The notes below the pieces were generated by a model. That model was not told the origin of the DNA. It saw only the letters and a program-made list of their open reading frames with translations, and made no database searches. DNA of 64,000 nt from Escherichia phage vB_EcoM-UFV09. Positions within the stretch are counted from its first letter, which is position 1, and every line of letters begins with the position of its first letter. The DNA is taken from the sequence record MZ291552.2; one strand, 5' to 3'. Below, in pieces: positions 2,459-24,133 of the stretch. A program made the translations under genes and the position numbers.

Positions 2459-4278
2459 TACTGGCTCATCCATTCTTTACGAAGGTCAGCATTATCTCCC
2501 ATGAGCATTTCAAAAAGCTCTTTCCAATTCTCAGGAAGTTTAACAACATCATATACTGGGTTTTGAATCATCTCACGATATTCAGATTTTTCCAAAGAGC
2601 CAAGTCCTTTAATATAACGGATGCTATGTTTAGGTAGAGCATCTTTGGCACTCTCATATTCAGCGACTGTATAAAACCATTCTTGTTTTTTACCGACCTG
2701 AGCGATGATTACAGGAGTTTTGACAAAGCGAATTCGTCCTTGCTCAAACAATTCTGGCCAATTACTAAAAAATCCGAGCAGAGAAGGATAAATGCTTCCT
2801 AAACCATCATGGTCAGCATCGGTCATAATAGCAATATTATGATAATTCAAGTTTTCAGCTTTTTCACCAAGAACTAATCCAGTGATTGCGCAAATATCAA
2901 ACAGTTCTTTGTTTTTAAGCATATCAGCATATGACATACCCCAGCTATTAAGAACTTTACCACGCAATGGATAACCACCGTGAAGTTCTTTATCACGAAC
3001 ATCAATAAGATATCCGATAGCAGAATCACCCTCAGTCAAGAAAAGAGTAGTGTCAGCATCTTTACCACAAAGATTCGCTTTGATATGTTTATGAACCTTA
3101 GCTTTAGAAGCCTTTTTAGCTGCTTTAGTTTCTGCTGCTTTTTCTGCCGCCAATTTACGAGCAAGGGCAGCTTCAATGATTGGCATTAAAATTGCTTCAT
3201 TATTTAGAATAGCGCGTGAAATCTTTTTAGCATCAAGTTGAATATGACTACGAATTTCGCCAAATGGAGAAGTCAAACGCTCTTTAGTTTGAGAATCAAA
3301 TCGCATGTTTTTCATATCACGGACAAACATAACGATAGTCAAACATTCTTTGACACGTGCTTTAGTCACATCAATTTTGAACTTACGTTTGATTTGTGGA
3401 ATAAGGTCTTCACAAATATCATCCATAACACAGTCAATGTGATGGCCACCATTCTTAGTGTGAATGTTATTCACATAAGTTAATTGACGAAATCCATCCG
3501 GTGAACGACCAACAGCAATAGAACAATTTTCTTGTTCTTGAACAATAGCATGTTCATCATACTGTCGTGCATATTTCTTAAAATTGCCCTGAACCTTTTT
3601 ACCATTAAAGGTAAATTGAATATCAGGATAAACAACAGCAAGTGTCTGGAGACGATCTAGTGTAATGTCAAGATAAACTTGGGACAGCTCATTAGTTTCA
3701 AATGACATAAAATCTGGAATGAAAGTAACACGAGTTCCTTTCCATTTTCCAGGAATAGTTTCCCAGGATTTATTTTCCATGCCATTTGAACAACGAACTA
3801 CAATATTATTTTGACCATCGCCAGTTTCACCGACAAACATCACAGAAAAAATGTTAGTTAAACTAGAACCAACACCATTCATACCACCGGTGACGCGTTC
3901 TTTATCATCACCAAAGTTACCACCCGCTTTTGGAATAGTCCATGCAGCAACAGGACCAGGAATTTCTTCACCGGTAGGTGTTTTAACCATCGCTTGCGGA
4001 ATACCGCGACCGTTATCTTCAACTGTCACCTGATTATTTTTAATGGTAACATTAATTTTATTCGCGAATTTAAACTTAGTACGAATACCTTCATCGACTG
4101 AGTTATCGATAATTTCATCAATAAGCTTAACAAGACCAGGTACATACTGAACACTTTCCCATTTACCAAACAGAAAGCGCTCATGCATTTCATTAGCAGA
4201 AGAGCCAATGTACATGCCACTACGCTTTTTGATATGTTCAATATCGCTCAGAATTTTAATTTCATTCTTAATCATCAC
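2458..4278 (-). CDS. 39: DNA topoisomerase II large subunit, uninterrupted form (GyrB-like ATPase plus Toprim)
   Basis: 606-aa ORF; N-terminus matches recalled T4 gp39 and continues without interruption into the gp60-equivalent C-terminal region. Confidence 0.9.
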   Translation of the reverse strand: MMIKNEIKILSDIEHIKKRSGMYIGSSANEMHERFLFGKWESVQYVPGLVKLIDEIIDNSVDEGIRTKFKFANKINVTIKNNQVTVEDNGRGIPQAMVKTPTGEEIPGPVAAWTIPKAGGNFGDDKERVTGGMNGVGSSLTNIFSVMFVGETGDGQNNIVVRCSNGMENKSWETIPGKWKGTRVTFIPDFMSFETNELSQVYLDITLDRLQTLAVVYPDIQFTFNGKKVQGNFKKYARQYDEHAIVQEQENCSIAVGRSPDGFRQLTYVNNIHTKNGGHHIDCVMDDICEDLIPQIKRKFKIDVTKARVKECLTIVMFVRDMKNMRFDSQTKERLTSPFGEIRSHIQLDAKKISRAILNNEAILMPIIEAALARKLAAEKAAETKAAKKASKAKVHKHIKANLCGKDADTTLFLTEGDSAIGYLIDVRDKELHGGYPLRGKVLNSWGMSYADMLKNKELFDICAITGLVLGEKAENLNYHNIAIMTDADHDGLGSIYPSLLGFFSNWPELFEQGRIRFVKTPVIIAQVGKKQEWFYTVAEYESAKDALPKHSIRYIKGLGSLEKSEYREMIQNPVYDVVKLPENWKELFEMLMGDNADLRKEWMSQ

Positions 4279-15537: not shown

Positions 15538-16056
15538 TTAATAACCTCGGTCTTGACGTGCGAAATTTTCAGCATTTTTCAGATAATAAAGTTTAAAGAT
15601 TTCTTCTGCTGTAAGACCAAGACCCTGGAACATATTCAGAACGAAATGAAGAATATCAATCATTTCAAATTTAATTTCTAACTGGTCTTGTGGAGACAAA
15701 TCAGTAATCAGAGTTTCACGACGTTCACCATGCTGCGACTTCCAAGGTTTCCATACAGCAGATGCGTCTTTTTCACCATTACTCATACCACCAAGAGAAG
15801 TCAGAAGTTCACGGAATTCATCGTCAATATAATCTTTCTGATTACGCAACCAATCAACAACTTCACCGGCAGTAGCTAAGTCATCAGGATGACGATTATA
15901 TTCAGGTTTATCTTTAGCTAAACGAACCTGCAAAGATTTCTGCATATCAAGCATTACCTGCAGCGGGTCTTTTTCATCGCCGAGAATATCCCAATATTCA
16001 TTTTGAGCTTTATCAGCGCCTTCAATCAGTTGTGAACATTCGTTAAAGTAAGCCAT
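15538..16056 (-). CDS. 56: dCTP/dCDP pyrophosphatase (MazG-like dCTPase)
   Basis: Start trimmed to MAYFNECSQ... (~172 aa, T4 gp56-sized); the longer track ORF reads through upstream sequence. Confidence 0.8.
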   Translation of the reverse strand: MAYFNECSQLIEGADKAQNEYWDILGDEKDPLQVMLDMQKSLQVRLAKDKPEYNRHPDDLATAGEVVDWLRNQKDYIDDEFRELLTSLGGMSNGEKDASAVWKPWKSQHGERRETLITDLSPQDQLEIKFEMIDILHFVLNMFQGLGLTAEEIFKLYYLKNAENFARQDRGY

Positions 16057-16127
16057 TATTTTTCCTTTCAATTCATGGGTTAGTAGATTAATTATACAAT
16101 AAATATATAAAGCAATAAGGAGGACAT

Positions 16128-16328
16128 ATGGTACAAAAATTAATGGCACTTGTTAATGCCATCAAAGGTAATAAGAAACGTATAGCTTTTACTATTTCTG
16201 CTATGGTAGGAATTTTACTCTGGAACTTTATTTTATCACCAATTGCAATTGCGCATGGTGTTAATATTCCAGTAGTTACTCTTGATACATTCGTAGATCT
16301 AGCATTTGCTTTAGTTGGGTTGATTTAA
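16128..16328 (+). CDS. small hydrophobic protein on the plus strand
   Basis: 66 aa, two predicted TM segments; strong AAGGAGG Shine-Dalgarno 4 nt upstream of ATG; fills the 56-61 intergenic gap. Confidence 0.45.
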   Translation: MVQKLMALVNAIKGNKKRIAFTISAMVGILLWNFILSPIAIAHGVNIPVVTLDTFVDLAFALVGLI

Positions 16329-17353
16329 ATCTTAGCATATTTAGATAGCCGCATTTTAGCCATCAACCCCTGGGCAATATTATTTTTCATATATTCCATA
16401 ATTTGTTCAGGGGTTGCACCTTCCTTTCTAATCATATCATTAACATCTTTAGATTTCCAGGGAGATTTATCCCAAAACATAACCCTTTCTCCTGCATCAA
16501 CTAATTTAGTCATTCGTTTGATAGTGTCAGGGTGACGAGGTTCATTATCTAAAACCCACACTCGTCTATCTTTAAATGGAACAATTTCTAGGTCTAATTG
16601 ACCACCCGTAATAGCTATACCATTTTCAATAAAAAGTGAATCTATAGGTCCTTCTAGAACATATACATCGCCATCTTTAACTCGTTCGACTCCATAGATT
16701 TTTGTTGCCTCAGGATAAGCTTTAATGGTGATATATTTTTGAGGAGCATTTTTCTTTAATGCACGCCCTTGAAACGACTCGGCTTTTCCGTTAGCATTAT
16801 AAATTGGAATAACAAGACGAGGCTCAGGTATTTCCTTTTTATATGTTCCCGGTGCTATGCTATTAACCAATTTAGGCCATTCGGTTGTAAACCAAAGATA
16901 TTTCCATTTATCCTTTGGAATACAACGAGCTTTTACGTATTTTATAATTGGATGGTCTTCCGCCAGTTTATCTAATCTAACACATGACGGAAGAGATTTA
17001 ATTATTTTCTTCTCAGGTTGTTTAGGAAGTTCTTTAGGTTTTTCTACTGGACGACTTTTACCTTTTTCTTTTCTTATTTCAAAGATATACTCACGATATA
17101 AATCAGGTTCAAACTCCTTTAAATATATTCCGATTGGTGCGTGATAGTTACAGTTATAACAATGAATATTTCCTTCATTATTATCACCATAATACCATCC
17201 ACGAGCTTTATTCTGGTCGGTTTTTGAATCTCCACAAACGGGGCATCTAAACCGCAATTTAAAAGTTGAACTATTATTTACTTGTGTGAATTTAGGTAAA
17301 TGAGCCAATGCACGATACGCAAACTCATTATCAATCCAAGGTATTGATGACAT
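16325..17353 (-). CDS. 61: DNA primase
   Basis: 342 aa, zinc-ribbon CPVCGDS...CYNC N-terminus; matches recalled T4 gp61. Confidence 0.9.
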   Translation of the reverse strand: MSSIPWIDNEFAYRALAHLPKFTQVNNSSTFKLRFRCPVCGDSKTDQNKARGWYYGDNNEGNIHCYNCNYHAPIGIYLKEFEPDLYREYIFEIRKEKGKSRPVEKPKELPKQPEKKIIKSLPSCVRLDKLAEDHPIIKYVKARCIPKDKWKYLWFTTEWPKLVNSIAPGTYKKEIPEPRLVIPIYNANGKAESFQGRALKKNAPQKYITIKAYPEATKIYGVERVKDGDVYVLEGPIDSLFIENGIAITGGQLDLEIVPFKDRRVWVLDNEPRHPDTIKRMTKLVDAGERVMFWDKSPWKSKDVNDMIRKEGATPEQIMEYMKNNIAQGLMAKMRLSKYAKI

Positions 17354-17521
17354 TTTTACTCTTCTTTTTCTTTAGATTCCTCTTTTTTCTTTTTAGGAAT
17401 CTGTTCAGGACCTTTATTTACTACAGCACCTGATGTTGTTCCAGTAGAGATATTTTCAGGATTACCACCTGAATCTCCAGCAACCATATCTTCTTTAATA
17501 AATTCTTTATATGTTTTCATA

Positions 17522-17878
17522 TTAACCTCTATTCATAAAAGCATTAAAAATTTGGTCATCAATCGATGGAATAGCAACTTTTTCTGCATCATTTAGCAAA
17601 TCATTAATTTCATCAGATAGCATAACACATGTACCTTTATTTCCTGTAATTGTTACTGCACAATTACGAACGTTTTCTTTATTAAATTTTAGGTTAATAT
17701 TTTCGTAATGAAAATCCTTTAATGCTGAATATATTTTTAAAATAAAATTGTCTTTTACTACAATAAACCCAACCTCACTATTAAAACGTGGTTCATGGAA
17801 ACTGTAATAAACCTTTTCATCTATAAAATCGTATGAAATTTTTTCCATTTTTAAATATGAAAATTCAGAACTATACAT
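17522..17878 (-). CDS. hypothetical protein (61.1/61.2 region)
   Basis: 118 aa; C-terminal tail SIDDQIFNAFMNRG shared with the next ORF. Confidence 0.45.
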   Translation of the reverse strand: MYSSEFSYLKMEKISYDFIDEKVYYSFHEPRFNSEVGFIVVKDNFILKIYSALKDFHYENINLKFNKENVRNCAVTITGNKGTCVMLSDEINDLLNDAEKVAIPSIDDQIFNAFMNRG

Positions 17879-17879
17879 A

Positions 17880-18521
17880 TTAACCTTTATTCATAAAAGC
17901 ATTAAAAATTTGATCGTCAATAGAAACTTTTACTTTAGGATGTTCTTCAAACGGTAATTCATATCCACATATTACAATTTTGTGATCGATACCAAAATAC
18001 ACAGAAGCAATATGATTAATATTATTTTCAGTGAAATCTAAATCAACATCAATATCTTTTTGACTAACGCTCAAAGGATAATTAATACGAATAATTCGAT
18101 TATCTTTAACAAAGATTCCACCGACATACTCTGTGTTGCGTTTAAAGTTTACACGTTTCCTAAATGAAAAATATTCAGGTTCTTTATGAGCCCGACTCAT
18201 AGGACACAATGAGTAGCTAGAATAAGAGATGTCAAATCCTACACCTTCAATATGAGCCAACGTGTCATGATTAAACCAATTATAATCATACGCCAAATCC
18301 ATTATATTGTAATATGTGAAAGGCACCGGATTAACATCATATATTGTACCTTTAAAATCTGCCCAGGCAACGATTTCATTATCTTTAACAATTACAAAAA
18401 TTGTGCCAATAAGATATCCACGGTTATTTTCATCAGGCGTTATATTATAACATTGTGCATCAGGAAATTTACCGTATTTAAACGGTGGATTTTTGTGCAT
18501 ATAATAAATCATATTATTCAC
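17880..18521 (-). CDS. hypothetical protein (61.1/61.2 region)
   Basis: 213 aa; C-terminal tail SIDDQIFNAFMNKG shared with the previous ORF. Confidence 0.45.
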   Translation of the reverse strand: MNNMIYYMHKNPPFKYGKFPDAQCYNITPDENNRGYLIGTIFVIVKDNEIVAWADFKGTIYDVNPVPFTYYNIMDLAYDYNWFNHDTLAHIEGVGFDISYSSYSLCPMSRAHKEPEYFSFRKRVNFKRNTEYVGGIFVKDNRIIRINYPLSVSQKDIDVDLDFTENNINHIASVYFGIDHKIVICGYELPFEEHPKVKVSIDDQIFNAFMNKG

Positions 18522-18807
18522 CTGTGATTTCGGTTACGATATCTTTGTTATCAAAATTAGGGTCACAATACAAAACATAGTTATACTGCATCACACCACC
18601 TGATTTAAGCTGTTTTTGTACTTCAACTTTCATATTGGGACGATCACGCTCAACGATATTCATAATATCCGCTTCAATTTGAGTTTCAACTTCAGTCTGA
18701 TCTGCAGTCATAGACCATTCACACAAATCTTTATCATAACCTGCCATAGCAGGCTGAGCAGCACAAGAAGCTAAAGCAAAAATTGCAGCAAAGATAAATT
18801 TTTTCAT
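18514..18807 (-). CDS. sp: Spackle periplasmic protein (superinfection exclusion)
   Basis: 97 aa with signal peptide; size and position between 61 and 41 as in T4. Confidence 0.7.
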   Translation of the reverse strand: MKKFIFAAIFALASCAAQPAMAGYDKDLCEWSMTADQTEVETQIEADIMNIVERDRPNMKVEVQKQLKSGGVMQYNYVLYCDPNFDNKDIVTEITGE

Positions 18808-18867: not shown

Positions 18868-19179
18868 CTATTTTAAAACTTCTGCATAATCACATGTTAC
18901 AAACTGTTTCTCTAACTTGACGATTTTACGAAAATACCTTTTACACTGACGAATCTGTCGCTTCGTAGGACGTACAGCAAACTTAATAAATTCCACTCGA
19001 CCAAATGGAGGACTTTCTTCTGCTGGAATATCTAGCACCAATTCCCACGTATCTGCAATAAGTGCTTTGAATTGCGTATTTTTCCTGACGTTATACGGAG
19101 TAGGTTTAAATAAAACAATATGCATATTATCCTCGGCAATCCACTTCGCACACTTTCTTGTCATCAATGAAAGCTTCAA
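18868..19179 (-). CDS. hypothetical protein (61.4 position)
   Basis: 103-aa ORF. Confidence 0.4.
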   Translation of the reverse strand: MKLSLMTRKCAKWIAEDNMHIVLFKPTPYNVRKNTQFKALIADTWELVLDIPAEESPPFGRVEFIKFAVRPTKRQIRQCKRYFRKIVKLEKQFVTCDYAEVLK

Positions 19180-23980: not shown

Positions 23981-24133
23981 TTAAACCTCAATTGATGCAT
24001 TCATATTTAATTTGTAACAGTAATAAACCCCAACCTATAATAAGTGTCGGAATCATACAAGGAACCGTTACGCTATAGTATATACTTATTATAATCATCA
24101 AGATTAAAAGCAATACTGCTAAAATTTTGCTTT

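Follow-up and report, generated by a model that had tools for sequence, protein, structure and literature searches.

Genes and direct repeat at the locus

The window analyzed here is the whole stretch of 64,000 nucleotides from Escherichia phage vB_EcoM-UFV09 (record MZ291552.2), a Tequatrovirus, and its positions 17300-18600 are 100% identical to the Escherichia phages vB_EcoM-UFV05/06/10/11. All genes of this segment are on the minus strand, in the transcription order gene 41, dmd, 61.4, sp, 61.2, a 118-aa ORF, 61.1 and gene 61 (Table 1). The listed GTG start of 61.2 at position 18521 (213 aa) is probably an over-extension and the ATG at 18512 is probably right, which restores a TAA-T-ATG junction with sp. 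The 103-aa ORF listed at 18868-19179 is likewise an over-extended 61.4 (DUF7279), overlapping dmd, for which relatives annotate 85 aa. A dam methyltransferase gene is missing from the interval between genes 56 and 61 (15538-16328). At this site T4 carries dam and T2 a DNA methyltransferase, while the window holds, as does RB51, a 66-aa hydrophobic ORF of the RB32ORF030w type on the plus strand (16128-16328).

Table 1. Positions in the window of the genes, repeat copies and predicted promoter elements
Feature	Positions	Strand	Remarks
Gene 61, DNA primase	16325-17353	-	Would be the first complete gene on the transcript from the P61 ortholog
Gene 61.1, 54 aa	17356-17520	-	Downstream of repeat copy 1
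118-aa ORF (RB32ORF033c / phrog_4122 type)	17522-17878	-	Single-domain paralog of the AdfA C-terminal half, plus tail
Gene 61.2 = adfA (anti-DarT factor A), 210 aa	17880-18512	-	ATG at 18512
sp (Spackle)	18514-18807	-	Upstream boundary of the variable AdfA-family slot; TAA-T-ATG junction with 61.2
Repeat copy 1	17518-17566	-	Last 14 codons of the 118-aa ORF (SIDDQIFNAFMNRG), stop TAA, T, 61.1 ATG
Repeat copy 2	17876-17924	-	Last 14 codons of 61.2/adfA (SIDDQIFNAFMNKG), stop TAA, T, 118-aa ORF ATG
MotA-box region of the predicted P61 ortholog, TTAATGCTTT	17538-17547	-	GCTT at 17539-17542; codons F-N-A-F of the tail
-10 of the predicted P61 ortholog, TAATAT	17519-17524	-	TAA + T + AT of the 61.1 ATG
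Predicted start of the P61 ortholog	17512	-	By homology with T4 19122; codon 3 of 61.1
Second, upstream MotA-box region (predicted), TTAATGCTTT	17896-17905	-	Inside the 61.2 tail
Second -10 (predicted), TAATAT	17877-17882	-	61.2 stop + T + AT of the 118-aa ORF ATG
Predicted start, upstream copy	~17870	-	By register; codon 3 of the 118-aa ORF

A preliminary description of this DNA had reported a near-identical direct repeat of about 50 bp beginning at 17521 and 17881. A repeat search of the locus recovered it as a single family with two copies of 49 nt, identical at 45 of 49 positions (92%) and spaced 358 bp from start to start. The first of the two coordinates stands, while the second is 2 nt off, as the 'attaacc' of copy 2 begins at 17879. 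Read on the minus strand, each copy encodes SIDDQIFNAFMN(R/K)G (S-I-D-D-Q-I-F-N-A-F-M-N-(R/K)-G), followed by TAA, a single T and then the ATG of the next gene, which bears out the earlier observation that two adjacent genes end in the same tail and junction. In both copies the reading frame is kept, and the stop and start codons fall at the same positions. The copies differ at four positions: AGA versus AAA in the R/K codon, and three synonymous changes, of which one is in an S codon and two are in D codons. In the 64-kb window the 23-nt exact core TTCATAAAAGCATTAAAAATTTG is present twice, where 100 dinucleotide-preserving shuffles gave an expectation of 0.00, and the 49-mer, allowed up to 3 mismatches, had no chance match in any shuffle.

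AdfA and its single-domain paralog

The product of 61.2 is AdfA, matching the Pfam family PF23813 over profile positions 1-211 (E 1.5e-136, 452.9 bits, cut-off 27). The 118-aa ORF also passes the Pfam AdfA profile, with 34.4 bits against the gathering cut-off of 27, at profile positions 113-211 only, and it is 37% identical to the AdfA C-terminal half over 106 aa (BLASTP, E 5e-11). In a profile search the PHROG families of AdfA and of the short ORF cross-matched over body and tail, and the GenBank record of RB51 notes the ortholog of the 118-aa ORF as 'similar to gp61.2'. The two genes had been described as carrying the same tail on otherwise different bodies. The tail is indeed common to both, but the body of the 118-aa ORF shares its ancestry with the AdfA C-terminal half.

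The full two-domain AdfA architecture (~210 aa) is present in 61.2 and absent from the 118-aa ORF. What the proteins share is the C-terminal domain, which includes the residue-164 site, and the identical tail. The 118-aa ORF differs in lacking the whole N-terminal domain, in having only ~35% identity within the common domain, and in belonging to a PHROG family of its own (phrog_4122), with a candidate function only. AF2 modeling of AdfA gave five strands and a helix in each half (pLDDT 68), and the model of the 118-aa ORF has the same five-strand-plus-helix topology (pLDDT 82, pTM 0.71). In both models the tail is a low-confidence terminal helix, with pLDDT ~56-58. Because one such unit is predicted in each AdfA half and in the short ORF, the family members seem to consist of a domain of ~90-100 aa, present once or twice, followed by the tail. 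AdfA itself looks internally duplicated, as its halves share this modeled topology and an (I/V)VKDNxI motif; a comparison of the N half with the C half by hhalign gave E 0.0017.

AdfA was found in RB69, where the substitution R164H lets it bind and neutralise the DarT1 toxin; T4-type AdfA alleles already carry His at the equivalent of position 164, and T2 is naturally without adfA (PMC11257639, summarising LeRoux et al. 2022). The window 61.2 has His at the equivalent of RB69 residue 164 (NINHIAS, H167 in its own numbering), while the 118-aa ORF has Asn there (NVRNCAV) and so lacks the His of neutralising alleles. The window AdfA is nearer to that of RB69 (84.5% identity) than to that of T4 (74%), the difference being mainly N-terminal. 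In some relatives (L032, Shfl2 group) a T4-type AdfA N-terminus is combined with the gene arrangement of the window, which indicates that the adfA gene is itself mosaic.

A predicted middle promoter within the repeated tail

The preliminary description missed that the bases of the repeat match P61, a middle promoter mapped in T4. The P61 start site is at 19122 (Hinton 2010, PMC2988021, Table 1, citing Marshall, Sharma and Hinton 1999). With +1 set to position 19122 on the minus strand of AF158101.6, -35 to -26 reads TTAATGCTTT, with the MotA-box core GCTT at -30 to -27, and in the same register -12 to -7 reads TAATAT. Box and -10 of T4 P61 both lie inside the 61.2 tail and junction: the MotA box falls in the codons F-N-A-F, and the -10 is composed of the 61.2 stop TAA, the single T and the AT of the 61.1 ATG.

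Both copies in the window read TAATGCTTTT, which matches the MotA box (a/t)(a/t)(a/t)TGCTTtA except at the last position, where there is T and not A. A sigma-70 -10 of the form TAnnnT is expected 12 +/- 1 bp after the box, and in both copies TAATAT lies 12 bp after the 9-mer box. The differences between the copies are confined to -17 and to positions farther upstream than -40, and neither the MotA box nor the -10 is affected. Over the stretch that begins with the first D codon and ends with the ATG (-45 to -6 of the T4 start), MotA box, spacer and -10 included, copy 1 is identical to T4 P61, and it stands before 61.1 and 61 at the orthologous position. Copy 2 shares the MotA box, the spacing and the -10, but it is an extra upstream copy before the short ORF, has a G-to-A change at -17, and its register-predicted +1 is T and not a purine. 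While the T4 start is a mapped one, taken from the literature table, both window copies are predicted from sequence alone. The phage is thereby predicted to carry two P61-type promoter sequences 358 bp apart, both directed toward the primase gene.

As the P61 start is inside codon 3 of 61.1, the first complete gene on its transcript would be gene 61. RNA-seq of T4 suggests that gene 41/61 expression is mainly read-through from early promoters, not MotA (PMC6024815), so the contribution of P61 to gene 61 expression may be small.

The pattern TGCTTY-N12-14-TANNNT has 23 matches in the window against 7.4 expected, with both tails included and 17 of the 23 on the minus strand. Further minus-strand matches are found at 130-153, 384-408, 16091-16114 and 24088-24112, and several of the window matches coincide with mapped middle promoters of T4 (rIIB region). 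A scan of the window for sigma-70 promoters and terminators gave 31 sites versus 23 expected and was uninformative; none of the sites is at the repeats.

Conservation and distribution of the tail peptide

The tail is present on bodies of three PHROG families: phrog_3781 (AdfA), phrog_4122 (the short ORF) and phrog_8539, a 146-aa protein of Dhakavirus and Gaprivervirus whose profile similarity to the other two is confined to the tail. It is also kept on the barely alignable bodies P0059 and P0061, both of which occupy the same slot directly downstream of sp. DDQIFNAFM is almost invariant across the 62 family proteins collected, and DDQIFNAFMN(R/K)G is almost invariant in several T-even genera. 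Between lineages the synonymous sites do vary (CAA/CAG, ATT/ATA/ATC, GCT/GCC/GCA, TTT/TTC, AAT/AAC, AGA/CGA, GGT/GGC), as does the stop (TAA/TGA), yet no amino-acid change in DDQIFNAFM was seen in any DNA locus examined. This combination of a near-invariant peptide with varying synonymous sites points to strong purifying selection at the protein level. Lineages outside Tequatrovirus often lose GCTT or the -10 yet keep the peptide, so the constraint on the peptide is independent of the promoter.

The 146-aa Dhakavirus body is tentatively taken as homologous to the short-ORF body. Profile-profile comparison of the tail-free bodies yielded E 0.002-0.1 with probabilities below 16%, owing to shallow alignments, and with scores this weak the proposed homology depends on one Foldseek match of the phrog_8539 body to the short-ORF model (E 1.1e-4, TM 0.57).

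A profile search of 1.84 billion representatives returned 5 real clusters and two spurious repetitive proteins, and the back-translated tail pattern had 0 matches in 185,579 bacterial and archaeal species genomes. From these counts the tail family is small and phage-specific, with members only in phages of the T-even type. Mimicry of a host or antitoxin motif by the tail was considered and finds no support, given the empty search of bacterial and archaeal genomes.

A second tandem pair of tail-bearing genes is found at 3005-3803 of the Gaprivervirus VR25 (L020), where a 145-aa protein of the 146-aa type is followed by a 119-aa protein of the short type. Both tails end in FMKR(D/G), with a common N-to-K change that is written with different Lys codons (AAG and AAA). 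The common change may reflect co-variation with a common partner.

Gene arrangements among relatives

Four arrangements of the slot were found among relatives. The order sp-61.2-short ORF-61.1 is shared by the window, RB51, Sf21 and the loci L019, L025, L026 and L032; T4 and PE37 contain 61.2 only (sp-61.2-61.1); T2 contains the short ORF only (sp-short ORF-61.1); and phiC600P9 contains neither (sp-61.1). The difference between T4 and the window is exactly one 358-bp unit. Among the relatives compared, the break between arrangements is always at the tail junction, and all junctions end AGAGG(T/C)TA(A/G)TATG. The suggestion of module shuffling in the preliminary description is upheld by these relatives, which lack exactly the 358-bp unit (T4), 61.2 (T2) or both genes (phiC600P9), and also by the third body type of Dhakavirus. 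Within the phage collection the tail was found, approximately, in 709 records at 907 places, the short-ORF body in 298 records and the adfA body in 486 records; together these counts imply ~190 genomes with both genes.

The SNPs at the 5' end of the tail (GAC-GAT versus GAT-GAC) track the 61.2 allele, and the R/K codon (AGA versus AAA) tracks the downstream gene, which suggests past crossovers inside the invariant 24-nt core. Deletion between 7-nt repeats (TGAATAA) was also considered as a route from the window arrangement to that of T2, but was rejected as inconsistent with the junction present in T2, TAATTAGAGGTTAGTATG.

The closest described mechanism is the PeSL-mediated modular shuffling of T4-type phages (PMC2839356; Comeau et al. 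2014, PMC4122927). In both cases a short conserved regulatory sequence lies on either side of a dispensable ORF, relatives differ by exactly the flanked unit, and recombination between the flanking copies would delete or insert the ORF with the promoter carried along. However, a PeSL consists of an intergenic early sigma-70 promoter and a terminator stem-loop, whereas the repeat has a predicted middle promoter within protein-coding sequence, is without a stem-loop and is also conserved as a peptide. The repeat was rejected as a PeSL cassette for its location inside coding sequence, for folds no more stable than those of shuffles and for the lack of any sigma-70 or terminator site at the repeats.

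Origin and maintenance of the repeat

What is found here is a conserved dual-use gene junction whose components are all already known. We consider it probable that two tandem AdfA-family genes of ancient divergence share the repeat as their 3' end, that its copies are kept alike by selection on the peptide and on P61 and the ribosome-binding site, and that it serves as a recombination joint. The two genes would be a full-length adfA and a short paralog with only the C-terminal domain, and their near-identity at the 3' end would be maintained by two layers of selection and not by recent copying. One layer would be very strong protein-level selection, on every body type of the family, for a peptide of 12-14 residues, (S/A)(I/V)DDQIFNAFM(N/K)(R/K)(G/D); predicted to be a helix on a variable linker, this peptide may act as a tethered interaction motif. 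In Tequatrovirus a second layer would be added, since the same nucleotides would form the MotA-dependent P61, with its box in F-N-A-F and its -10 from TAA + T + AT, and would provide the following gene with its Shine-Dalgarno sequence and start codon as well. From both P61 sites transcription would begin inside codon 3 of the following ORF, and translation of that ORF therefore presumably relies on upstream early transcripts. Exchange within the element would add or remove one whole gene with the neighbors undamaged, potentially giving rise to the four natural arrangements. Being identical before different downstream genes and behind different bodies, the element has the appearance of a joint for homologous recombination.

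Codon identity between the copies indicates how much of the repeat goes beyond the peptide. Of the 12 degenerate codons of the tail, 9 are identical between copies, against 6.5 expected from the codon usage of the phage (P = 0.12). This expectation is near enough to what was observed that the repeat mostly follows from an invariant peptide in a codon-biased genome. In the QIFNAFMN core (8 codons, 7 of them degenerate) all codons are identical (P = 0.017, a post hoc test), and at identical residues the two genes use the same codon in 9/12 cases in the tail versus 7/24 in the body (Fisher P = 0.012). Given the P value for the whole tail, the case for additional constraint at the nucleotide level rests on the contrast between body and tail together with the post hoc core; this evidence is modest, and the promoter and ribosome-binding site can explain such a constraint.

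Recent tandem duplication, which the preliminary description had suggested, or ongoing gene conversion could also keep the tails alike. The 24-nt core that is identical in both copies beyond what amino acids and codon bias predict (the P = 0.017 above) is compatible with this, as are the genus-typical codons that the Tequatrovirus paralogs share where RB69-type adfA uses ATA/GCA/CGA, the single-base difference between the two tails of L032 and the common N-to-K change in VR25. However, bodies that are ~35% identical and have only 7/24 codons in common at identical residues show the gene duplication to be old. In every two-gene Tequatrovirus locus examined the copies can be told apart by AAA/AGA, and GAC-GAT versus GAT-GAC recurs with this 61.2 allele in the window, RB51, L025 and L026; such recurrence of copy-specific SNPs across independent phages speaks against continual homogenization. 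Further, the shared K of VR25 uses different codons, and codon identity over the whole tail is within the codon-bias expectation. We regard copying of this kind as unlikely. Conservation purely at the DNA level, with the peptide a functionless passenger of promoter, Shine-Dalgarno sequence and start codon, would account well for the exact coincidence of the tail with the P61 MotA box, spacer, -10 and the ribosome-binding site of the next gene. It is nonetheless very improbable, because the peptide is kept where these elements are altered: RB69 types read GCATTT...TAAAAT, several Dhakavirus types read GCCTTT...TGATAT with a TGA stop, and L038 is without a -10 at the right distance. In the DNA loci examined DDQIFNAFM stays constant, although almost all synonymous sites differ in one lineage or another.

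A role as an RNA element, such as a hairpin controlling translation of the next gene or a processing site, might be expected since the repeat covers the Shine-Dalgarno sequence and the start codon of the gene that follows, and since the genes are tightly coupled (TAA-T-ATG). The RegB motif is GGAG, and none lies within the repeat. The folds of 86 nt around each copy, at -8.3 and -5.4 kcal/mol, are not more stable than random (z +0.29 and +1.60 versus shuffles), and the changes between genera are without a compensatory pattern, all of which leaves this role with very little credence. Least credible of all is a chance or low-complexity match. The sequence is AT-rich, and the preliminary description had named a generic low-complexity match as grounds for dismissing the repeat, but the core, observed twice, never arose in 100 shuffles, the copies agree in reading frame and in the placing of both stops and both starts, and the tail recurs in 709 phage records, so this explanation is refuted.

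Implications for the AdfA family and for gene 61

At this locus the anti-DarT factor AdfA and the middle promoter P61, both already known from T4, are brought together. Current understanding is not overturned; the modest new angle is the dual-coded duplicated junction together with two relatives of AdfA. The 118-aa paralog and the 146-aa Dhakavirus type become candidate counter-defence genes, and the 12-residue motif, as the most constrained part of the family, is an obvious target for mutagenesis. The locus is also a clear case, found in nature, of genes being gained and lost at a short joint that is conserved as coding and as regulatory sequence.

A bolder reading, which we find conceivable but doubtful, is that the DDQIFNAFMN(R/K)G helix is a portable anchor peptide of a small T-even anti-defence family (AdfA, the 118-aa paralog and the 146-aa type), docking one conserved partner while the fast-evolving bodies set specificity. 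The partner may be a factor of the phage or the host, or else a surface that DarT-like toxins have in common. If this were the case, the 118-aa paralog and the 146-aa proteins would be uncharacterised counter-defence factors, and with the primase promoter placed in the codons of the peptide, anti-defence cassettes could be swapped without the primase ever being cut from its promoter.

Any change made to the 3' end of adfA, whether a deletion or a recoding, also reaches into the promoter region and the ribosome-binding site that serve the genes leading to the primase. In T4 the published delta-adfA allele, 61.2 delta65-196, retains the last 12 codons (PMC11257639, strain table), and with them the P61 box, the -10 and the ribosome-binding site of 61.1.
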